Virus record (IMG/VR): IMGVR_UViG_3300045988_123769
Coordinates: 1 to 32,945 of that record
DNA: 32,945 nucleotides
Strand: one strand, 5' to 3'
Source of the DNA: a virus
Position 1 is the first letter of the stretch. Every line of letters starts with the position of its first letter. The translations under genes and the position numbers were made by a program. Below, one piece after another: positions 1 through 32,945 of the stretch. The notes under the pieces were generated by a model. That model had not been told where the DNA came from. It was given only the letters and a program-made list of their open reading frames with translations, and ran no database searches.

Positions 1-80
1 CCTGCACGGAGCAGGAATTTGTGGACGAGTACTGCAAGCGCCACTTTGAAAAGTACGGCGAAGATTTTATCGTAATGTGA
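1..80 (+). CDS. 3' end of the 60-aa acidic protein gene (duplicate of 32827-32906 caused by the terminal overlap)
   Basis: Same sequence as the end of ORF 32724-32906. It reads ...EQEFVDEYCKRHFEKYGEDFIVM, with TGA at 78-80. Confidence 0.7.
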   Translation, partial: CTEQEFVDEYCKRHFEKYGEDFIVM

Positions 81-92
81 GACAGGGCAAAC

Positions 93-111
93 GGGCGGGC
101 AATGCCCGCCC
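93..111 (+). other. GC-rich stem-loop GGGCGGGC-aat-GCCCGCCC downstream of the 60-aa gene; no U-tract
   Basis: Perfect 8-bp inverted repeat seen directly. It is followed by cacccagaga, so it is not a canonical intrinsic terminator. Confidence 0.4.
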
Positions 112-140
112 ACCCAGAGATAAGGGAGGTCTAAAAGCAA

Positions 141-326
141 ATGCCAAGCTATGAGCGCAATAAAAAATACGCCGCCGCTTATCGCGCAAAAATTGAGCGC
201 ATAGACGTTTTTGTCCCGCAAGGGCAAAAGCGGATAATAAAAAATCACGCCGCAGAGCGCGGAGAAAGCATGAACGAATTTATAAACCGCGCCATCAATG
301 CTGCCATGCAACGCGAGGAAAATTAA
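141..326 (+). CDS. Ribbon-helix-helix (CopG/Arc/MetJ-like) DNA-binding protein, 61 aa
   Basis: The C-terminal GESMNEFINRAINAAM helix pattern is typical of RHH regulators. A GGGAGG SD lies 11 nt upstream of the ATG. Confidence 0.55.
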   Translation: MPSYERNKKYAAAYRAKIERIDVFVPQGQKRIIKNHAAERGESMNEFINRAINAAMQREEN

Positions 327-334
327 AAAGTCAG

Positions 335-419
335 CAAAAACCCCTTGACAACTATTCCGGTATAGTATATAATAAAGACACGATAAAGCAAGGGGCTAAA
401 GCCCCGAAGGGAGTTAAAA
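335..419 (+). promoter_or_regulatory. Early/moron promoter-leader cassette, copy 1
   Basis: TTGACA (345-350), 17 nt, TATAAT (368-373). The leader has a GGGGC-taaa-GCCCC hairpin (392-405) abutting a GAAGGGAG SD. It is about 90% identical to 31745-31833 and 32636-32723. Confidence 0.8.
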
Positions 420-704
420 ATGAAGGTTTACAAAGCGATTGAAGGCACCGAGACTTATGAGCAGTATGGCGAAGATTTTATCCCCATGTGGCGGGTAGCG
501 GAAAAAGACTTCCCCCGCAACGAAGTCCGCGCGGCTACGGCAGATGAGCTTATAGCGGCCATAGACGACGATGCCGAGTGGGAGCCGAATCTTGTCGAGG
601 CGCTGTGCTATGAGCTGGATATAGACTTTGACAGCTCCGAGGACTGCGAATCCGCCTACGATGCGGCAGTAGCCAAGCACGCCGCCGAGACGCTGAACCG
701 CTAA
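420..704 (+). CDS. Highly acidic 94-aa protein, paralog of the C-terminal domain of ORF 31834-32565
   Basis: It sits directly behind the promoter-leader cassette. 25 of 94 residues are D/E against 8 K/R. It shares the EGTETYEQYGEDF and LVEALCYEL...EDCE motifs with the other early proteins. Confidence 0.75.
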   Translation: MKVYKAIEGTETYEQYGEDFIPMWRVAEKDFPRNEVRAATADELIAAIDDDAEWEPNLVEALCYELDIDFDSSEDCESAYDAAVAKHAAETLNR

Positions 705-750: not shown

Positions 751-790
751 CAAAAATAAAAAGCCCCCATTAGGGGGCATATTTTATAAG
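751..790. terminator. Bidirectional intrinsic terminator between the convergent early (+) and late (-) transcription units
   Basis: The GCCCCC-atta-GGGGGC hairpin (763-778) is flanked by an A-run (751-762, which is a U-run on the minus strand) and by atatttta on the plus strand. It overlaps the stop codon of 770-1009. Confidence 0.7.
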
Positions 791-22005: not shown

Positions 22006-22586
22006 GCCTTCGTTCCCTCCTTCGGTGGTTCAGGATGTATCCGCATGGCCATCATCAGTTTTATATCTTCCTTGTTAGTCCTCAGAATAATAGGCTCTGA
22101 CGTCCCCCTGATCTCCAGCGTTATGCACTGCGAATGCTTACCGCCGCACGATATTTTTGCCGCCCGTAATGCGCTTAATAGCAAGTCACCGTTAAATGCA
22201 ATCTTATAGCGCACATCACTTCGGGGGACTACCTTTCCCCAGTCAAAACCTTCTATGGCAGGCTGTACATAGCCGTATATAAGCCCTTCGCAGTACACAT
22301 TAAGAATGTCGCCCTGCAATTCGATTTGTGCATACACGTCTTTGCGTGACGGCAATTTTATATTACCCTCAGTGTATGCGATAAAATCTTCGTCACACTC
22401 GTCCAACGCGGCGTTTTCAACGGCCATTCTAAAGCTGTCCATCGCAACCGCAGTTACACGCTTGTTTTTTGCGCTAAATTCCAGCTTGATACGCCTATAC
22501 AGCGGCCTTTCGCCGTGTACATCAACAAATGCTTTCGTTGCCGCAATAATGCGGTTAAATTCCCTTGTGTTAATTATCGCTTTCAT
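22002..22586 (-). CDS. Half-size DNA polymerase III beta-clamp-like protein (194 aa)
   Basis: MKAIINTREFNRIIAATKAF, EGFDWGKVVP, IAFNGDLLLSALRAA and PIILRTN...LMMAMRI line up by eye with conserved DnaN segments. The protein is only about half the usual length. Confidence 0.55.
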   Translation of the reverse strand: MKAIINTREFNRIIAATKAFVDVHGERPLYRRIKLEFSAKNKRVTAVAMDSFRMAVENAALDECDEDFIAYTEGNIKLPSRKDVYAQIELQGDILNVYCEGLIYGYVQPAIEGFDWGKVVPRSDVRYKIAFNGDLLLSALRAAKISCGGKHSQCITLEIRGTSEPIILRTNKEDIKLMMAMRIHPEPPKEGTKA

Positions 22587-22746
22587 TTCAGATACTCCTT
22601 TATCGTCCTAATTGCTTCCTCTGCGCCCCTGCAAACAACGGCCTTATAGCCTTGCTCCGCAAGCGCGGTTATCCAGCTTTTTTGCATCTCGCTCACCGTG
22701 CCGCCCTTTTGCCGCTTTAGCTCGATGTACAGGCCGTGATACCCGC
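22581..22746. repeat. 166-bp direct repeat, copy A (partner 24271-24436)
   Basis: My manual alignment gives 13 mismatches in 166 bp. The offset is exactly 1690 bp. Confidence 0.9.
22583..22746 (-). pseudogene. Remnant of the 3' third of a VRR-NUC gene (duplicate of 24273-24436)
   Basis: 92% identical to the 3' end of the intact VRR-NUC gene, with a 72-nt perfect core. It would encode [52 protein letters not shown] but has no start codon or N-terminal domain. Confidence 0.8.
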
Positions 22747-23651: not shown

Positions 23652-23680
23652 AGATACTCCTTTATCGTCCTGATTGCTTC
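23652..23680. repeat. Third, 29-nt copy of the VRR-NUC 3'-end junction (AGATACTCCTTTATCGTCCTGATTGCTTC)
   Basis: One mismatch to 22590-22618. Confidence 0.8.
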
Positions 23681-23685
23681 GCCCA

Positions 23686-24276
23686 TCAGTATTTCACGGC
23701 CTCTCCGCGCGTGATGAAAAAATGTATACCCGCGGTGCATTCGTCCCAACGGTTTTCGTCAAAGTCTGGGGCCTCTGCGATTTCGCCGACACGGTAAACA
23801 AATTCTTTACTAAAATCGCTTGTGATTTCGGTTAAGCCGCTATCAGATCCATCTGAGTAGGTTATGCTCAGCACCTTCGCCTTGCTGCACCGGCATTTAC
23901 GCGATGTAGCGCTGCTACGTTTTGCATTTGCGCATATTTCTAACTCGACAATATAGCCGGAAGCCTTTTTATACCCGATAAACGACCCCGTCTCAGGGCA
24001 CTGTAATGGATAAAAGGCCGTGCGCGCATTCCACGCAATTTTATCGATATTTTTGGCATCGCGCAGGTTGGCACCGCTCAGGTTGGCACCGCTCAGGTCG
24101 GCATCGCTCAGGTCGGCACCGCGCAGGTTGGCACCGCGCAGGTCGGCATCGCTCAGGTCGGCACCGCGCAGGTCGGCACCGCGCAGGTCGGCACATTCCC
24201 CGCCATCCTCACCTCTTAGCCATTTTGCGTGCTTATAGATGATCGCCTTTAATTCCGTATAGGATATTTTTTTCAT
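23686..24276 (-). CDS. Pentapeptide-repeat protein with a phage-type C-terminal domain
   Basis: About 11 consecutive A(D/N)L(R/S)GA pentapeptides ([23 protein letters not shown]...). The C-terminal domain ends [17 protein letters not shown]. Start moved to MKKISYTEL (ATGA overlap). Confidence 0.8.
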
Positions 24277-24436
24277 TGCAGATACTCCTTTATCACTTTT
24301 ATCGCTTCCTCTGCGCCCCTGCAAACAACGGCCTTATAGCCTTGCTCCGCAAGCGCGGTTATCCAGCTTTTTTGCGTCTCGCTCACCGTGCCGCCCTTTT
24401 GCCGTTTTAGTTCGATGTACAGGCCATGATATTCGC
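24271..24436. repeat. 166-bp direct repeat, copy B (partner 22581-22746)
   Basis: As for copy A. Confidence 0.9.
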
Positions 24437-26917: not shown

Positions 26918-26969
26918 CTATGTACCTCCTTTGGTCTTGTCAAATACCATCATTGGTCTTTATGCTGCC

Positions 26970-26998
26970 ATTATAATACCATCATAGGCACTTGTCAA
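26970..26998 (-). promoter_or_regulatory. Early lytic promoter: TTGACA, 17 nt, TATAAT
   Basis: The minus strand reads TTGACAagtgcctatgatggtatTATAAT (-35 at 26993-26998, -10 at 26970-26975). Confidence 0.75.
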
Positions 26999-27041
26999 TA
27001 ACTTTTTTTAATTTTATGTTCCGTTCGTGGAACTTTTATTC

Positions 27042-27070
27042 TTGATTTGGTATAAGATGTGGTGTATAAT
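27042..27070 (+). promoter_or_regulatory. Repressor-side promoter: TTGATT, 17 nt, (TG)TATAAT
   Basis: -35 at 27042-27047 and -10 at 27065-27070, with an upstream TG (extended -10). Confidence 0.65.
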
Positions 27071-27101
27071 ATCAGTAGATAAAGCAAAGGGGAGTGATGA
27101 A

Positions 27102-27431
27102 ATGCCGACAAAATTTGGGCGGTTTGCCGAGCTGCGCAAAGCACTTGGGATGGACTTAGAGCAGCTTGCCGCTGCGTCGGGTGTGCCGCTTAGCACGCTG
27201 CGCAAAATCAGCAGCGGCGCTACCACAAACCCGAACCTTGAGACAATGAAAGCGATTGCGCGGGCGCTGGGATGTACGCTGGACGATTTAACAGATGCAG
27301 CGCCCTCGCAAATGGAAGCCGAAAAAGCCGAGATACTTAATCTTTACGATTGTCTTGATGAACAGGGGCGGGCTGCGCTTGCGTCATATGCGAAATTTTT
27401 AGCAGCTCAGCGTAACAACGGAGAAGGCTAA
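27102..27431 (+). CDS. cI-like XRE-family repressor
   Basis: Start moved to MPTKFGRFAELRKALG (AAAGGGGAG SD). HTH segment LEQLAAASGVPLSTLRKISSG. The C-terminal LYDCLDEQGRAALASYAKFL motif is common in Firmicutes phage repressors. Confidence 0.75.
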   Translation: MPTKFGRFAELRKALGMDLEQLAAASGVPLSTLRKISSGATTNPNLETMKAIARALGCTLDDLTDAAPSQMEAEKAEILNLYDCLDEQGRAALASYAKFLAAQRNNGEG

Positions 27432-27693
27432 CGCCTTCTTCGCCCAAGCGGTCAACGGTGTGGGAAAATTCTGTGCGCGTCATTGTCTTATCCTCCGTGA
27501 AAAAATTGTTAAGATATGATACCATATCACAGACACCATACATCATATAATCTATGGTGGGTGGAGGGGGCGGTGGAGAAGCAAGGTAAGGTCGCGCCGC
27601 CCCCGGGTGCGCCCCTATGCGCATATCAAGCGTACCGCATATCGGGAGCAATTTATAGGGCTAAAAATGAGCCTTTCGACAAAATATTGGTAA

Positions 27694-27738
27694 AAAAATG
27701 AGCCTTTTGGGTATCAAAAATGAGCCTTTTGGGTATCA
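27694..27738. repeat. Tandem 22/23-nt repeat AAAAATGAGCCTTTTGGGTATCA x2 (partial third copy at 27663-27676)
   Basis: Read directly from the sequence. Each copy contains ATGAGCCTTT. Confidence 0.85.
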
Positions 27739-27770
27739 GAAATAGAAAACAGAAGAAAGAGGGCGAAAAT

Positions 27771-28205
27771 GTGGACACAATCACCGAATGTAACCAAAAG
27801 TATGCCGATGCTTTTGCAAGGCTGCGGGAAAAACACGGCGTGACGATTCAGGACGTAGCGCGAAGAAGTAAAATCCCGCTATCCACGCTCAAACGCACTT
27901 TGCAGGGCGAAACAGGTACGCCGATGGCGACGTATGAAATACTTGTTACCCAAGGCTTAGGCGCGACAATGCATGAATTTGCGGACGAGATTTACGGGGC
28001 CGTGCCGCAGGAGGCCGAAGCACCTACACAGAGGTACACCAACGCAGTCAGGCTGCTGCTTGCGGAAAAGGACAGGCGTATACAGCAGCTTGGCAAATGG
28101 CTTCGGTGGGCGGTGGTGTACAGCGTAAGCGTAACCGGGATATTGATAGGGGGTTTTTTATACGATGTGCTTAACCCCGCCGTGGGATGGCTCAGGCGGC
28201 CATAA
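27771..28205 (+). CDS. Membrane-anchored XRE-type HTH protein
   Basis: HTH segment VTIQDVARRSKIPLSTLKRTLQGE plus a C-terminal TM segment WAVVYSVSVTGILIGGFLYDVL. The GTG at 27771 follows an AAGAGGG SD. The track's ATG at 27720 lies inside the tandem repeat and has no SD. Confidence 0.6.
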   Translation: MDTITECNQKYADAFARLREKHGVTIQDVARRSKIPLSTLKRTLQGETGTPMATYEILVTQGLGATMHEFADEIYGAVPQEAEAPTQRYTNAVRLLLAEKDRRIQQLGKWLRWAVVYSVSVTGILIGGFLYDVLNPAVGWLRRP

Positions 28206-29659: not shown

Positions 29660-29968
29660 TTACGCCTTATACATATCCTGATATCTTTTTACACGTTCCG
29701 TTTTGTCTATCTGTTTGCTGTGTAAATAGTTATACAGTGTCAGCATATCTGCGGGCGGGTCGCCATGCTTGGCCTTGTAGTCCGATATGGCGCGGGCTAC
29801 AAGGTCGTGCAGCATGGATGCGTGGGTCAGCTCCTGCCCCGATATGGTGTACAGGGTCTGCGCCACGGTCGGCATATCGTCCTTGACCGCAAGCGCCCAC
29901 TTAGCATACTTTTCAGCGTCCGCGATTTCTTCGCAAATCTGGTCGGATAAATCGTTAATCAGCTTCAT
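29660..29968 (-). CDS. Helical protein with a ferritin-like half motif (E...ExxH), function unknown
   Basis: 102 aa. INDLSDQICEEIADAEKYAKWA...GQELTHASMLHDL. A GGAGG SD is embedded in the upstream gene. Confidence 0.6.
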   Translation of the reverse strand: MKLINDLSDQICEEIADAEKYAKWALAVKDDMPTVAQTLYTISGQELTHASMLHDLVARAISDYKAKHGDPPADMLTLYNYLHSKQIDKTERVKRYQDMYKA

Positions 29969-30375
29969 TTTTTAGCCGCCTCCGCCACGGTGGCGACGGC
30001 TCCGCCAGTCAGACCCGTCAAGTCGTTATTCGGCGCACAAGGCGGGTTGCCAAGCAGCTTAAACGTCCCGCCCGTGGGGGTGGTGGCCACCACGGTGCTG
30101 TACTTGGTGCGCTTGCGCATGCTGCACGCTGTCACTTGTGCGCAGCAGCGGTTTGTCAGGGGATACTGCGCCGTGCCTGTGCCGATGGTGATATATACGG
30201 GCGCGGATATGGTGGTGGTATCGGGTATGCTCTGCGCCACGACGATGCAATATTTCTCGCCGTTGGCGTACACTCCTGCGGGCAGATTGATAATAAGCCC
30301 AGTACCCGCCACAAATGTCACGGACTGGGATATAATCAGGTGGGGGCAAAGCTGGCATATATTTTTACAAGCCAT
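29965..30375 (-). CDS. Cys-rich orphan protein (136 aa)
   Basis: N-terminal ACKNICQLCPH and an internal NRCCAQVTAC. AAAGGAGA SD. Confidence 0.6.
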   Translation of the reverse strand: MACKNICQLCPHLIISQSVTFVAGTGLIINLPAGVYANGEKYCIVVAQSIPDTTTISAPVYITIGTGTAQYPLTNRCCAQVTACSMRKRTKYSTVVATTPTGGTFKLLGNPPCAPNNDLTGLTGGAVATVAEAAKK

Positions 30376-30451
30376 AATTTTCTCCTTTCATAATCAAGGG
30401 GCGGTCAAGCCGCCCCGATAGTCACGGCAATGCCGGATGGTGTGTCATGTC

Positions 30452-31078
30452 TTAGCAGCAGCTATTGCCGCAGCCGCAGCCGGAGCCGCAAAACGGGCTA
30501 TTCCCGGCGTTATAGGTGTAGCCGTTGGGGTAGCGTACCACGCCCGTCAGCTGCTCACGCACAAAGAGTTGGTTATTAGCCTGCTCAAGCTGGGCTATGC
30601 GCTGCTCAAGCTGCGCCTTTTCAAGGGCCGCGAATTTTGCGTCGATATTGGCGTTGATGGCATCCATGCCGCGCTGCACGGCGCAGCAGCACTCCGCCAT
30701 CTGGGACTGTATGCCGTTCGCGGACTGCATAACGGTCATATTCGTGGTATTCTGCGCGAGGGCCATTTCCTTCCCCAGCTGGCCGATATTGCCCTGCATA
30801 TCGTAGCCAAGGCTGCATATGCCGTTGCCAATGTTGGTCAAGCGGTCATTAAGCTGGCCAAAATGCTGACCGAAAAGGATTTCCTGCTGCGTCGCTGCGG
30901 TCGCGTACTGGCCGTAGTCACCGTTGCCACGGTTGCCCCAGCCGCCAAAGCCTCCGCCCATCATAGCCAAAAGCACGATAAGAGCAAATATCCAGAATCC
31001 TCCGCCCATGCTACCGCCAAGGCCGTCATTTTTGTCTGTCACGGCGGCGATATCCGCCAAAGAGGGTACATTATCCAT
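30452..31078 (-). CDS. Gly-rich TM / coiled-coil / Cys-tail orphan protein (208 aa)
   Basis: GGSMGGGFWIFALIVLLAMMGGGFGGWG segment, a central ECCCAVQ, a heptad-like AQLEQRIAQLEQANNQL, and the C-terminus FCGSGCGCGNSCC. GAAGGAGA SD. Confidence 0.65.
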   Translation of the reverse strand: MDNVPSLADIAAVTDKNDGLGGSMGGGFWIFALIVLLAMMGGGFGGWGNRGNGDYGQYATAATQQEILFGQHFGQLNDRLTNIGNGICSLGYDMQGNIGQLGKEMALAQNTTNMTVMQSANGIQSQMAECCCAVQRGMDAINANIDAKFAALEKAQLEQRIAQLEQANNQLFVREQLTGVVRYPNGYTYNAGNSPFCGSGCGCGNSCC

Positions 31079-31129
31079 TGTCTTTTCTCCTTCACAATTT
31101 TATTTTTTGGTATATAAATCGCGCGTGAT

Positions 31130-31345
31130 TTATCGTATCTGTGATAAGATGCTTTCAGGGTCTATGCCGCGCTGCTGGCACAGGCTGTAAAACATCTGCT
31201 GGGGGTCACGCCCGCCGAGCATCCGCATTACCTGCTGCATTTGCGCGGGCATCCCCATCATGCTTTTGGCCTGTGCGATTAGCTGCGGGGATATTTGCGG
31301 GGTCTGCTGGCTTCCAGCTTTCATTGCTTGCAATATGGGATTCAT
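31130..31345 (-). CDS. Gln/Met-rich small orphan protein (71 aa)
   Basis: A strong GGAGGA SD lies 8 nt upstream. The sequence looks helical. Confidence 0.6.
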   Translation of the reverse strand: MNPILQAMKAGSQQTPQISPQLIAQAKSMMGMPAQMQQVMRMLGGRDPQQMFYSLCQQRGIDPESILSQIR

Positions 31346-31634
31346 TTAATTTATCCTCCAATTTTGATATTCGTGCCGCGAGGTCGTTAATGTCCACAGG
31401 CGGCGCAGGCTGATACGGCGTGATGGTGTACGGGGTTAATGTAGGATACCCCGCGCTGTCGGTACACTTGTGCCAGACTATGGGCGCGGTGGTGTCCAGC
31501 AGCAGGATGCTGCTATTGGGCGCAAGGCTGTACGCCTTCGCCCCGCCCTCGCCATTGACTTGGGCAATTTCGGTGCGCTGCTGGTACTGCTGGGGCTGCT
31601 GATAGCCGCCAAAAAAGGGGTTAGGATTCCACAT
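31206..31634 (-). CDS. Gln/Pro-rich orphan protein (142 aa as an open frame; the last ~45 aa overlap the next gene)
   Basis: AAGGAGG SD. N-terminus MWNPNPFFGGYQQPQQYQQ. The frame stays open 140 nt into ORF 31130-31345. Confidence 0.55.
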   Translation of the reverse strand: MWNPNPFFGGYQQPQQYQQRTEIAQVNGEGGAKAYSLAPNSSILLLDTTAPIVWHKCTDSAGYPTLTPYTITPYQPAPPVDINDLAARISKLEDKLNESHIASNESWKPADPANIPAANRTGQKHDGDARANAAGNADARRA

Positions 31635-31674
31635 TTTTTTCGCCTCCTTATGCCTTATTTTCGCAAAAATTAAG

Positions 31675-31705
31675 CCCCGCGCTCAGGGCGCGGGGAGGGA
31701 ATTTA
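31675..31705 (-). terminator. Minus-strand intrinsic terminator just upstream of the cargo operon
   Basis: On the minus strand, CCCCGCGC-cctga-GCGCGGGG is followed by CTTAATTTTTG. Confidence 0.6.
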
Positions 31706-31744
31706 TAGGGCATTTAATGAGCAAAAATATTTTTTCAAAAAAAG

Positions 31745-31833
31745 TATGCAAAACCGCTTGACAACTATACCGGAATAGTATATAATAAAGCCATGATAAA
31801 GCAAGGGGCCGAAGCCCCGAAGGGAGTTAAAAA
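31745..31833 (+). promoter_or_regulatory. Early/moron promoter-leader cassette, copy 2
   Basis: TTGACA (31758-31763), 17 nt, TATAAT (31781-31786), then a GGGGCC-ga-AGCCCC hairpin and a GAAGGGAG SD. Confidence 0.8.
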
Positions 31834-32565
31834 ATGTTGAACGAGAAAATGATAATGAAGCTTGAGGACGCGGGTTTTAAGCGCTGGACTAAGGGCGATT
31901 ACGACAGGCTTTACATTGACGCTACTGCCTGCGGCCTTGAATGCGACACTTACAAGTCTGGTAATATTTCCTCCGCCACTTTTAACGGCGAGAGCATCTC
32001 CAACGCCCGCGCGGGCCGCATGAAGGCCATGAAAATGTATGTTGATATAGCGACCGGCGAATTTCACGCCGAGCATGCTTACGGTGCTAAGGGCGACACC
32101 GAAATAGCCGCAGCCGCCGAAGCCATCTATACCGCAATCGTCGAGGCCGCAGAGGCCGAAGAAGCTGAGCAAAAGGTTGAAGAAGCCGAGGAAATGACCG
32201 AAGAAGAAAGGCATAGCGCCTTGTATACCATAAAGGAAGGCACGGAGATGTACGAAGACTATGCCAAGCTGGGCGCGCAGTACCTCAAGGGCGCAATTAA
32301 GCACGGCTATGAGATAAATCCCGTCGAATACCATCCTTTTACCGCCGAGCAAAAAGATAATTTTGCCTACTTGCAAGCAAGCTATCGCAAAATCGGTCTT
32401 GCCGAGCTGGTTGAGATGCTAAAAGACCCCTTCTATGCGCCCCGCGAGGACGAGATATTGGAAGCCATATGCCAGGCCCTCGGCCTTATGGATAGGTGGG
32501 AAGATAAAGATTTTTGCTGTGAGGATATCATAGAGACCGCCGAAGCAAAGCTGAATAGCAAGTAA
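31834..32565 (+). CDS. Acidic 243-aa protein: novel N-terminal domain, poly-E/A linker, C-terminal domain paralogous to ORF 420-704
   Basis: It sits behind cassette copy 2. The linker reads EAAEAEEAEQKVEEAEEMTEEE. The C-terminal IKEGTEMYEDYA...ILEAICQALG...DKDFCCEDIIETAEAK parallels ORF 420-704. Confidence 0.75.
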   Translation: MLNEKMIMKLEDAGFKRWTKGDYDRLYIDATACGLECDTYKSGNISSATFNGESISNARAGRMKAMKMYVDIATGEFHAEHAYGAKGDTEIAAAAEAIYTAIVEAAEAEEAEQKVEEAEEMTEEERHSALYTIKEGTEMYEDYAKLGAQYLKGAIKHGYEINPVEYHPFTAEQKDNFAYLQASYRKIGLAELVEMLKDPFYAPREDEILEAICQALGLMDRWEDKDFCCEDIIETAEAKLNSK

Positions 32566-32635
32566 AAAGAAGCGCTTCTATCATTATAGTACCACCGGGC
32601 GTGCAAAAGTCAACGGAAAAATATTTTTTCAAAAG

Positions 32636-32723
32636 AAAGCAAAACCCCTTGACAACTATACCGGAATAGTATATAATAAAGGCACAATAAAGCAAGGGGC
32701 TAAAGCCCCGAAGGGAGTTAAAG
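32636..32723 (+). promoter_or_regulatory. Early/moron promoter-leader cassette, copy 3
   Basis: TTGACA (32649-32654), 17 nt, TATAAT (32672-32677), followed by the same hairpin and SD. Confidence 0.8.
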
Positions 32724-32906
32724 ATGGAAAACATAGTAAATGTAAACGGCAACGAAGTAAGCATGGACGCAGCGGTTATGCTGATGGATGACGAGATCCG
32801 CGAAGCGATACACTCTGACATCGCGCCCTGCACGGAGCAGGAATTTGTGGACGAGTACTGCAAGCGCCACTTTGAAAAGTACGGCGAAGATTTTATCGTA
32901 ATGTGA
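32724..32906 (+). CDS. Acidic 60-aa protein sharing the YGEDFI motif with ORF 420-704
   Basis: It sits behind cassette copy 3. 15 D/E against 4 K/R. GGCGAAGATTTTATC is identical at nucleotide level to 468-482. Confidence 0.75.
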   Translation: MENIVNVNGNEVSMDAAVMLMDDEIREAIHSDIAPCTEQEFVDEYCKRHFEKYGEDFIVM

Positions 32907-32945
32907 GACAGGGCAAACGGGCGGGCAATGCCCGCCCACCCAGAG
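32827..32945. repeat. Terminal direct repeat, copy 2 (identical to 1-119)
   Basis: Exact match. Confidence 0.95.

Follow-up and report, generated by a model that had tools for sequence, protein, structure and literature searches.

Anti-CRISPR-associated (Aca) repressors bind inverted repeats in the strong promoters of anti-CRISPR (acr) genes, and for the majority of Aca families, repeated sites point to predicted control of adjacent anti-defence operons as well (bioRxiv 10.64898/2026.07.27.740549). Control of several operons has been shown experimentally for Aca14, a ribbon-helix-helix (RHH) protein (Feussner et al., bioRxiv 10.64898/2026.07.27.740549), and Aca11 and Aca13 provide a further example (PMC12282945). 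The principle that one Aca protein serves several operons is already known, having been described in 2025-2026. Hairpins at fixed positions in the 5′ untranslated region (UTR) have also been described in Aca-controlled operons (bioRxiv 10.64898/2026.07.27.740549). Here, we characterized three near-identical cassettes, each consisting of a promoter, a leader hairpin and a Shine-Dalgarno (SD) sequence, in a phage sequence of 32,945 nt (IMG/VR record IMGVR_UViG_3300045988_123769, positions 1 to 32,945; hereafter, the window). We favour the view, with a probability of roughly 70%, that the cassettes form a reiterated anti-defence expression module, i.e., a locus of the acr-aca type in which one repressor governs three promoters.

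Several properties of the window recall Aca-controlled loci. An acr gene homologue is followed by a gene for a putative small DNA-binding protein, an inverted repeat lies inside a predicted strong promoter, the repeat recurs ahead of adjacent operons with further candidate anti-defence genes, and the distance to the start codon is conserved. Unlike in Aca-controlled loci, the entire unit of ~90-115 nt is reiterated at ~90% identity, and not the operator alone. Three features of this system are new. A whole promoter-operator-leader cassette is reiterated threefold in a genome, related phages form a natural series whose shared cassette comes with four different operator-regulator pairs, and the leader hairpin is retained unaltered across changes of regulator.

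Anatomy of the cassette block

A repeat search placed the cassettes in a single family of three 92-nt copies (327-418, 31740-31831, and 32631-32722), the first and third being 86 and 91% identical to the reference copy at 31740-31831 (100%). As the earlier note on this DNA had described, the promoter of every copy agrees with the sigma-70 consensus at 12 of 12 positions (TTGACA-17-TATAAT), and the hairpin stands directly 5′ of the SD. Between SD and ATG there are 6, 7, and 6 nt in cassettes 1, 2, and 3, respectively. An exact TTGACA-N17-TATAAT occurs four times in the window and in none of 100 shuffles; the fourth occurrence (26998-26970, minus strand) precedes a cro-like gene, is unrelated and does not belong to the cassette family. 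GGGGC-N4-GCCCC directly 5′ of GAAGGGAG was found exactly three times, compared to 0.03 expected. The alignment also contains the AT-rich upstream segment that had been reported for cassettes 2 and 3. In cassette 1, most of this segment is missing, as the gene ahead of it extends to 326, and the version preceding cassette 2, AAAAATATTTTTTCAAAAAAA, recurs in cassettes of other phages (classes B and C, below). A putative start-of-transcript motif, GATAAAGCAA, is kept among the cassettes. Since the leader of the CI-like repressor gene (27079-27104) has GATAAAGCAA (27079-27088) and then an SD, without a hairpin, the motif is probably the start of the transcript. By the same comparison, the leader hairpin has the look of an insert peculiar to the anti-defence cassettes. 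A miniature transposon was considered as well and rejected, as the cassette ends show neither terminal inverted repeats nor target duplications.

The first 119 nt of the window are repeated with 100% identity at its end (32827-32945), indicating a circular assembly of 32,826 bp. Because the window is circular, the three cassettes are adjacent in one plus-strand block of ~2 kb and do not lie at opposite ends. The order on the plus strand is cassette 2, the 243-aa gene, cassette 3, the 60-aa gene, the 61-aa gene, cassette 1, the 94-aa gene, and a terminator (Table 1). That terminator (763-778) is the sole plus-strand terminator of the block, and a terminator scan of the window found no plus-strand terminator-like sites between the cassette units. 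Stacked morons with terminators after the genes had been proposed. With three promoters and one common terminator instead of a promoter and a terminator for each unit, the block would yield nested transcripts with a common end and not three self-contained morons. Elsewhere in the window are genes for terminase, portal, major head, tape-measure, an NlpC/P60 lysin, integrase, and a CI-like repressor, and the window represents a temperate tailed gut phage. The block belongs to an accessory region flanked on one side by the lysis end of the late operon and on the other by the integrase. Structural, integrase, and repressor genes on a circular contig provide the mobile-element setting of an acr-aca locus.

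The 60-aa protein encoded behind cassette 3 is, by homology, a member of the AcrIC5 anti-CRISPR family. It matched the Pfam AcrIC5 profile (PF22147) with E=3.1e-23 and 82 bits (cut-off 27) over positions 1-53 of 53, and the AcrIC5 structure (PDB 7yhr) over its full length with E=6.3e-10, so that the locus contains a homologue of a validated Acr, as acr-aca loci do. AcrIC5 orthologues are already known from human-gut Firmicutes and Actinobacteria (PMC7913775). We also noticed an unannotated 66-aa open reading frame (ORF) of the AcrIC5 family (Pfam E=5.7e-21) in a human-gut microvirus, Gokushovirus WZ-2015a (KT264799.1, 3702-3902; positions 556-756 of our locus L053), which shares 74.6% DNA identity with the acr gene of the window.

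The earlier note had spoken of small acidic genes behind the cassettes. All three products are indeed acidic, with isoelectric points (pI) of 4.05 (94 aa), 4.13 (60 aa), and 4.59 (243 aa), although the 243-aa protein is not small. We consider the 94- and 243-aa proteins candidates for an anti-defence role. Homologues of the 243-aa protein were found behind class B and C cassettes in other phages. For the 94-aa protein, a natural fusion exists: the 153-aa protein P0007 (L052, 2096-2557) joins it to an AcrIC5 domain (E=1e-21). The fusion is encoded behind a cassette of the same class (A), which ties the 94-aa protein to anti-CRISPR activity in functional terms. The 94-aa protein and AcrIC5 of the window also have an 11-residue motif in common (YGEDFI), which corresponds to a 33-nt DNA repeat at 47-79 and 458-490.

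Sixty nt past the acr stop codon, on the same strand and across the circular junction, begins the gene for a 61-aa basic protein, RHH-1. By its weak RHH matches, it takes the place of the small DNA-binding protein gene that lies directly downstream of acr, in the same orientation, in acr-aca loci. Among PHROGs, the protein matched phrog_13890 (E=3e-14) and phrog_582, an Arc-like repressor (E=7e-4). Of eight weak Pfam matches, seven are to RHH or RHH-like families (E=0.02-0.2, all below cut-off), and a PF10723 match is precomputed for close homologues. To judge from these weak matches, the protein looks like an RHH repressor.

The 17-nt promoter spacer of each cassette is filled by a 16-bp near-palindrome, ACTATWCCGGWATAGT. 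The copy in cassette 1, ACTATTCCGGTATAGT, is the exact reverse complement of that in cassettes 2 and 3, ACTATACCGGAATAGT. Within the window, ACTATWCCGGWATAGT occurs without mismatch only in the three spacers, and with up to three mismatches at 4 sites vs. 0.17 expected. In a relative (L001), a perfect palindrome, ACTATTCCGGAATAGT, is present in two cassettes, beside an RHH-1 orthologue. This is the arrangement of an acr-aca locus, with the palindrome between −35 and −10 in all three cassettes and, as described below, in strict association with the type of regulator. Comparative evidence argues strongly that the small regulator of the block would bind at the palindrome and that all cassettes of a genome share one regulator; the RHH protein would presumably repress the cassette promoters. 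The co-regulated, strong expression that had been postulated for the cassettes is supported by inference, and co-regulation is strongly implied. The earlier note, accurate as to the cassettes themselves, had missed the AcrIC5 gene, the RHH-like gene, the spacer palindrome, and the acr-aca scheme.

Like Aca14, the regulator of the window is RHH-like rather than of the helix-turn-helix (HTH) type. The similarity between the two is marginal: BLASTP against Aca14 of P. multocida gave 30% identity over 47 aa (E=0.056), and hhalign gave E=0.026 with a probability of 1.9%, in a collinear alignment of the N-terminal helix and RHH region. The operators differ. The Aca14 site, TGTATATGTAAGCATATACA, is an AT-rich inverted repeat that overlaps the −10, whereas the operator of the window is in the spacer, stops 1 nt short of the −10, has a CCGG core, and is unrelated to TGTATATGTAAGCATATACA. 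Unlike the Aca14 loci, which are from Proteobacteria, the present ones come from human-gut metagenome phages, one related contig being deposited as a Christensenellaceae metagenome-assembled genome (MAG), and in sister phages the cassette is combined with three further pairs of operator and regulator.

Table 1. Features of the cassette block, in plus-strand order across the circular junction; a dot marks a feature without assigned strand.
Feature	Position	Strand	Basis
Terminator-like hairpin, 8 G-C pairs and T-run, left border of block	31675..31695	-	terminator scan
AT-rich segment AAAAATATTTTTTCAAAAAAA, UP-element position, 5′ of cassette 2 −35	31723..31743	+	alignment
Cassette 2 promoter, TTGACA-17-TATAAT	31758..31786	+	promoter scan
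Cassette 2 palindromic operator candidate, ACTATACCGGAATAGT	31764..31779	.	palindrome search; pairing with RHH-1
Cassette 2 leader hairpin GGGGC-CGAA-GCCCC (31805-31818) and SD GAAGGGAG (31819-31826)	31805..31826	+	pattern search, folding
243-aa acidic protein (G3), pI 4.59, candidate anti-defence	31834..32565	+	ORF, family searches
Promoter-like site TTGACT-16-TACTAT (32613-32586), then palindrome AGAAGCGCTTCT and T-run	32568..32613	-	promoter scan, comparison with relatives
AT-rich segment 5′ of cassette 3	32617..32634	+	alignment
Cassette 3 promoter, TTGACA-17-TATAAT	32649..32677	+	promoter scan
Cassette 3 palindromic operator candidate, ACTATACCGGAATAGT	32655..32670	.	palindrome search
Cassette 3 leader hairpin GGGGC-TAAA-GCCCC and SD GAAGGGAG	32696..32717	+	pattern search, folding
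AcrIC5-family anti-CRISPR homologue, 60 aa, pI 4.13	32724..32906	+	Pfam, PDB matches
Intercistronic hairpin GGGCGGGC-AAT-GCCCGCCC, gap between acr and RHH genes, no T-run	32919..32937	+	−20.7 kcal/mol, z=−3.3
Terminal redundancy, joins 3′ end of window to 5′ end	1..119	.	100% identity to 32827-32945
61-aa basic protein (RHH-1), pI 9.77, RHH-like, candidate Aca-type repressor	141..326	+	PHROG, Pfam weak matches
Cassette 1 promoter, TTGACA-17-TATAAT	345..373	+	promoter scan
Cassette 1 palindromic operator candidate, ACTATTCCGGTATAGT	351..366	.	palindrome search
Cassette 1 leader hairpin GGGGC-TAAA-GCCCC and SD GAAGGGAG	392..413	+	pattern search, folding
94-aa acidic protein (G1), pI 4.05, candidate anti-defence	420..704	+	ORF, family and fold searches
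Bidirectional terminator GCCCCCATTAGGGGGC, A and T runs on either side	763..778	.	terminator scan

Operator classes and leader hairpin in related phages

Relatives were collected with a leader pattern, which found 32 loci in IMG/VR and, in a genome collection, one contig deposited as a MAG; the exact promoter pattern proved too strict and found one relative only in IMG/VR. A similarity search added MT835524, a GenBank faecal phage contig. After a relaxed rescan of the window and 33 fetched loci (IMG/VR and MT835524), the set comprised 59 cassettes on 30 contigs. A scan of metagenomes gave 41 cassettes at 31 human-gut loci, some of them shared with the first set. Overall, ~100 homologous cassettes were seen in human-gut phage contigs, counted over two partly overlapping sets. 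Close GenBank relatives are unannotated faecal contigs, and L001 is a 37.8-kb contig deposited as 'uncultured Christensenellaceae'. There are one to three cassettes per contig, and common to them are the AT-rich upstream segment, −35, −10, GATAAAGCAA, hairpin, and SD.

The operator and the regulator differ among these phages, in four classes. Class A, to which the window belongs, has ACTATWCCGGWATAGT in the promoter spacer together with RHH-1. In class B, the spacer holds TAGGTATATACCTA and the regulator is a 64-aa protein, RHH-2. Class C has TTTGTCA-N10-11-TGACAAA over the −35 and a 159-aa HTH_3 protein (E=1.9e-7), and class D has CATACTGG-NN-CCAGTATG in the spacer and RHH-3 (RHH_1, E=7e-4). 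All 25 contigs with at least two cassettes have a single operator class. The correspondence of class and regulator is one to one in all 24 contigs whose regulator lies in the fetched DNA, and the pairing recurs in the 31 gut-metagenome loci. Outside the spacer, cassette 2 agrees closely with a class B cassette of L014 (65 of 68 upstream positions, 46 of 52 downstream positions), but within it only 4 of 18 positions match. The operator behaves as an exchangeable slot.

Folded by itself, the leader hairpin has an energy of −8.7 kcal/mol, and the SD remains unpaired. Relative to shuffles, its energy is unremarkable (z from −0.5 to −2.0), so the case for the hairpin must rest on conservation. It is present in 59 of 59 cassettes on the 30 contigs and in the 41 gut-metagenome cassettes. 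When the hairpin region was left unconstrained in the pattern, the 13 extra loci were all chance matches in AT-rich DNA, and no true hairpin-less cassette was among them. The 59 cassettes contain 18 hairpin variants, with stems of 4-5 pairs, almost all G-C, and loops of 3-6 nt that vary in sequence. The position is fixed, at 18-20 nt past the −10 and 13-18 nt ahead of the ATG, and the G-run of the 5′ arm equals the C-run of the 3′ arm in length in 46 of the 59. Stems were counted by script, since MAFFT misplaced them as a result of the differing loop lengths. The outer three pairs are invariant, which is partly fixed by the search patterns and carries no covariation information; given these invariant pairs and a narrow family, statistical covariation is weak. 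One stem shows a compensatory change from C:G to U:A (GGGGT-AAA-ACCCC, L001), and another has a G.U pair (GGGGC-TAAA-GTCCC, L002). The earlier note had made its reading depend on conservation or covariation of the leader in related phages; the former was borne out in all 59 + 41 cassettes, while the latter is minimal. Rfam at the gathering score gave no match in the window, this being the only Rfam scan to cover cassette 1, and at E<=10 over 31600-32945 (cassettes 2 and 3) it returned chance-level matches only, none of them on the leaders.

Since the hairpin is constant with four regulators, is unlike any of the four operator half-sites, and has no fixed loop length, it appears to be a regulator-independent RNA element rather than a second operator or an Aca-binding RNA. 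Indeed, a dimeric DNA site would not tolerate loops of variable length. The comparison thus suggests that the hairpin is probably a cis-acting RNA element independent of the regulator. A role in mRNA stability or SD presentation, including on read-through transcripts from upstream cassettes, is a tentative proposal to which we give somewhat less than an even chance.

Camara-Wilpert et al. (2023, PMC10651486) described an acrIC5-racrIC1 bicistron in a Bifidobacterium prophage, as well as single CRISPR repeats in the vicinity of acr genes. The present system resembles that case in its AcrIC5 homologue and human-gut setting, and in that the sister phages L001 and L002 have CRISPR repeats, GTTCCCCGCGTAAGCGGGGGTGAC (minus strand), between the first and second cassette genes. 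The repeats are at about 8006-8092 in L001 and 3927-3950 in L002, with a solitary repeat in one phage and a two-repeat mini-array in the other, and are placed downstream of a minus-strand promoter and upstream of a palindrome and T-run. Unlike the Bifidobacterium case, the window itself has no CRISPR repeat; its segment 32568-32613 keeps the promoter-like site and the palindrome. Rfam gave no meaningful match to the CRISPR-like repeat of the relatives at gathering or permissive thresholds. By their form and setting, the repeats look like an RNA anti-CRISPR (Racr) or a mini-array, presumably resembling type I-E rather than I-C.

Proposed mechanism and competing explanations

We propose that each module combines an AT-rich segment, a full-consensus sigma-A promoter, the 16-bp operator in the 17-nt spacer, GATAAAGCAA, a 5-bp G-C hairpin, and a strong SD. 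Upon infection, host RNA polymerase would fire all three promoters, and the output would include an AcrIC5-type anti-CRISPR and two more acidic candidate anti-defence proteins. The 61-aa RHH protein, encoded by the last gene of the middle unit, would accumulate, bind the palindrome between −35 and −10 of the three promoters, and thereby shut them down jointly. The hairpin, separate from the regulator, may act in cis by stabilizing the mRNA, presenting the SD, or insulating it from read-through RNA. Of this scheme, the anatomy, the AcrIC5 homology, the strict operator-regulator pairing, and the conservation of the hairpin are directly observed, whereas promoter activity, repression by the RHH protein, the anti-defence role of the 94- and 243-aa proteins, and the function of the hairpin are predicted.

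Several observations weigh against this scheme. The RHH assignment of the 61-aa protein relies on sub-threshold matches, and its AlphaFold2 model, built from six near-identical sequences, is poor (predicted local distance difference test, pLDDT, 63) and all-helical, without a beta-strand, and does not confirm the fold. Neither the 94-aa nor the 243-aa protein had a significant match in PDB, Pfam, or PHROGs, the sole weak match being that of the 243-aa protein to phrog_34763, a family of unknown function (E=0.0059). The 94-aa AlphaFold2 model is usable (pLDDT 85), and Foldseek against PDB returned nothing below E=1. Transcription starts and promoter strength are themselves predictions. The cassettes form a narrow family drawn from human-gut phages that are close relatives, and their conservation partly reflects shared ancestry; real covariation in the hairpin amounts to one pair. 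Finally, a start ~7 nt past the −10 would put ~12 unpaired nt ahead of the stem. Such a distance is not ideal for a classical 5′-terminal stabilizer in Firmicutes, judged by mRNA decay in Bacillus subtilis.

Among the alternatives, the one that survives best is that the cassettes are mainly recombination modules, with ~90-115 nt of homology for swap, deletion, or fusion, and the hairpin merely travelling along. As the primary function this seems rather unlikely, although it is compatible with the anti-defence module and has a documented precedent in the PeSL cassettes of T4-type phages, mobile promoter/stem-loop units in which the stem-loop is an effective terminator (Arbiol et al. 2010, PMC2839356; Comeau et al. 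2014, PMC4122927). Like PeSLs, the cassettes are short reiterated units that combine a strong early promoter of the sigma-70 type with a stem-loop. Both are found beside small, variable genes without a known function, and close relatives differ in the genes present at them. Cassettes stay while the genes behind them differ: where the window has AcrIC5 and the RHH protein, MT835524 has a 202-aa protein and an HTH regulator. L048 (1-260) lacks cassette 1 and the 94-aa gene, with a break exactly at the cassette border, and its RHH gene is followed directly by the terminator; in L052, a cassette is joined directly to the start of a truncated integrase gene. The variable number of cassettes per contig (one to three) and the fusion of the 94-aa protein with AcrIC5 point in the same direction. 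On the other hand, ordinary mosaic exchange in an accessory region could produce such swaps, and recombination products or mini-circles are beyond what sequence alone can show. Moreover, PeSL stem-loops are terminators upstream of the promoter. The stem-loop of the window is 3′ of the promoter, in the leader, is followed by GAAGGGAG, and has no plus-strand U-tract, so it lacks the makings of a terminator. The cassettes also differ from PeSLs in carrying a repressor operator and in belonging to a temperate phage.

Another explanation is that the hairpin is an RNA site for the regulator of the locus, as for Aca2 and Aca1, through which translation would be blocked as well as transcription. The Aca2 RNA motif is reported to be bound by the regulator itself (Birkholz et al. 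2024, as summarized in bioRxiv 10.64898/2026.07.27.740549). The Aca2 and Aca1 motifs are comparable to our hairpin in being conserved 5′ UTR stem-loops of acr operons, with the promoter-operator on one side and the ribosome-binding site on the other, whereas the hairpin of the window, unlike that of Aca2, is unrelated to the operator and is unchanged when the regulator changes. The layout is that of the aca1, aca2, aca10, and aca12 operons, with a DNA motif over the promoter and an RNA hairpin in the 5′ UTR at a fixed position relative to the start codon; in the window, the hairpin ends 3 nt ahead of the SD core. Nonetheless, the identical hairpin accompanies four unrelated regulators (three RHH types and one HTH), its sequence is unlike the four operator half-sites, and its loop ranges from 3 to 6 nt. 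An RNA motif bound by the regulator would be expected to change with it or with the DNA operator, and the constancy of the hairpin argues against a regulator-binding RNA. In addition, the only RHH Aca tested had no conserved RNA motif (bioRxiv 10.64898/2026.07.27.740549). We therefore regard this explanation as improbable.

We give as little credit to a third possibility, that the hairpin and the conserved TTGCTTTATC following it on the minus strand form a weak intrinsic terminator against antisense transcripts entering the promoters. A terminator scan flagged all three hairpins on the minus strand, and antisense transcription seems to be expected in the block, given the minus-strand promoter-like site inside it (32613-32586) and the strong minus-strand terminator at its left border (31695-31675). 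However, a stem of no more than 4-5 pairs and a broken U-tract speak against it; the G.U variant of L002 would be a C.A mismatch in minus-strand RNA; and the hairpin-less occurrence of GATAAAGCAA in the repressor-gene leader (27079-27088) indicates that this motif has a plus-strand role.

Slightly less probable still is that these are ordinary early or moron promoters without a dedicated repressor, the palindrome being incidental or a CI/Cro site. The window does encode CI-like and Cro-like proteins and has another perfect consensus promoter (26998-26970), but this switch promoter has other repeats (ATGATGGTATT, twice) and not the cassette palindrome, whose class moreover tracks the in-block regulator wherever both were available. 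Least probable by far is a boxB-like nut site for an N-type antiterminator: the short G-C stem, purine-rich loop, and early-promoter leader would suit it, as would the GACAA and GAAAA loops common among relatives (GGGC-GACAA-GCCC and GGGC-GAAAA-GCCC), which we take to recall the P22 and lambda boxB pentaloops, but the loops of the window have 4 nt (UAAA, CGAA), the family range of 3-6 nt misfits a defined pentaloop fold, neither a boxA-like element nor an N-like protein was identified, and there are no internal plus-strand terminators to read through.

If the cassettes are an anti-defence expression module, a broader reading is conceivable, although we consider it speculative and rather doubtful. 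The cassette would be a regulator-agnostic, plug-and-play module for both expression and recombination of anti-defence genes, with the AT-rich upstream segment and the hairpin-bearing leader kept constant as homology arms. The 17-nt operator slot would be exchanged in all copies when a new repressor arrives, and genes would be swapped, lost, or fused at the borders. The hairpin would be an undescribed, Aca-independent post-transcriptional element of Firmicutes acr mRNAs, and gut phages would have new anti-CRISPR or anti-defence families in the Zn-ribbon-like, 94-aa, and 243-aa proteins encoded behind the cassettes.

For uncultured gut phages, the number of known anti-CRISPR loci and regulators is small. 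The cassette offers a sharp sequence tag, by which at least five protein families can already be singled out as anti-defence candidates, including the orphan-fold 94-aa protein. In archaeal viruses, a conserved strong-promoter sequence stands ahead of numerous early anti-defence genes and helps to predict others (PMC11065993); unlike here, those promoters are archaeal, and no leader hairpin was described for them (Bhoobalan-Chitty et al. 2024). The four operator-regulator pairs in an otherwise identical promoter context are a natural test of Aca-type specificity (three RHH types and one HTH), and the series also bears on the joint conversion of several promoters within one genome. As the hairpin is constant while the regulator changes, a cis RNA function becomes separable from regulator binding, two roles that are hard to separate in the Aca1 and Aca2 systems.

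Further features of the window

In relatives, too, the minus-strand terminator-like hairpin of the left border precedes the first cassette (GGGCGCGGGGAGGGAATTTA...). It lies ~40 nt upstream of a minus-strand gene start at 31634, which belongs to a five-gene minus-strand cluster (29660-31634). Between the acr and RHH genes, the GGGCGGGC-AAT-GCCCGCCC hairpin might set the ratio of Acr to repressor, or might be a processing or stability element; it is seen again at 93-111 as a result of the terminal redundancy.

In the divergent switch region (26930-27104), the perfect minus-strand promoter of the cro-like gene (26998-26970) is accompanied by the two ATGATGGTATT repeats, and a plus-strand promoter (27042-27070) serves the CI-like repressor gene, in whose leader GATAAAGCAA occurs without the hairpin.

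A segment comprising the 3′ end of a VRR-NUC gene and the SD of the gene that follows is present three times at 79-97% identity (22581-22746, 23652-23680, and 24271-24436), one copy being a 166-nt fragment fused to another ORF. These repeats look like recombination scars or junction modules in the early region. On the minus strand, 23686-24276 encodes a pentapeptide-repeat and DUF5758 protein with about ten 15-nt tandem units, the repeat part of which is about 91-93% identical over 140 nt to pentapeptide genes of Salmonella P22-like and Edwardsiella phages. Three AAAATGAGCCTTT repeats (27649-27735) stand just 5′ of a gene for a 161-aa HTH-like protein (27720-28205); at the matching spot, a sister contig has CAAAAATGGAAAAG three times, and a related motif, AATTTATAGGGC, recurs at 31699.

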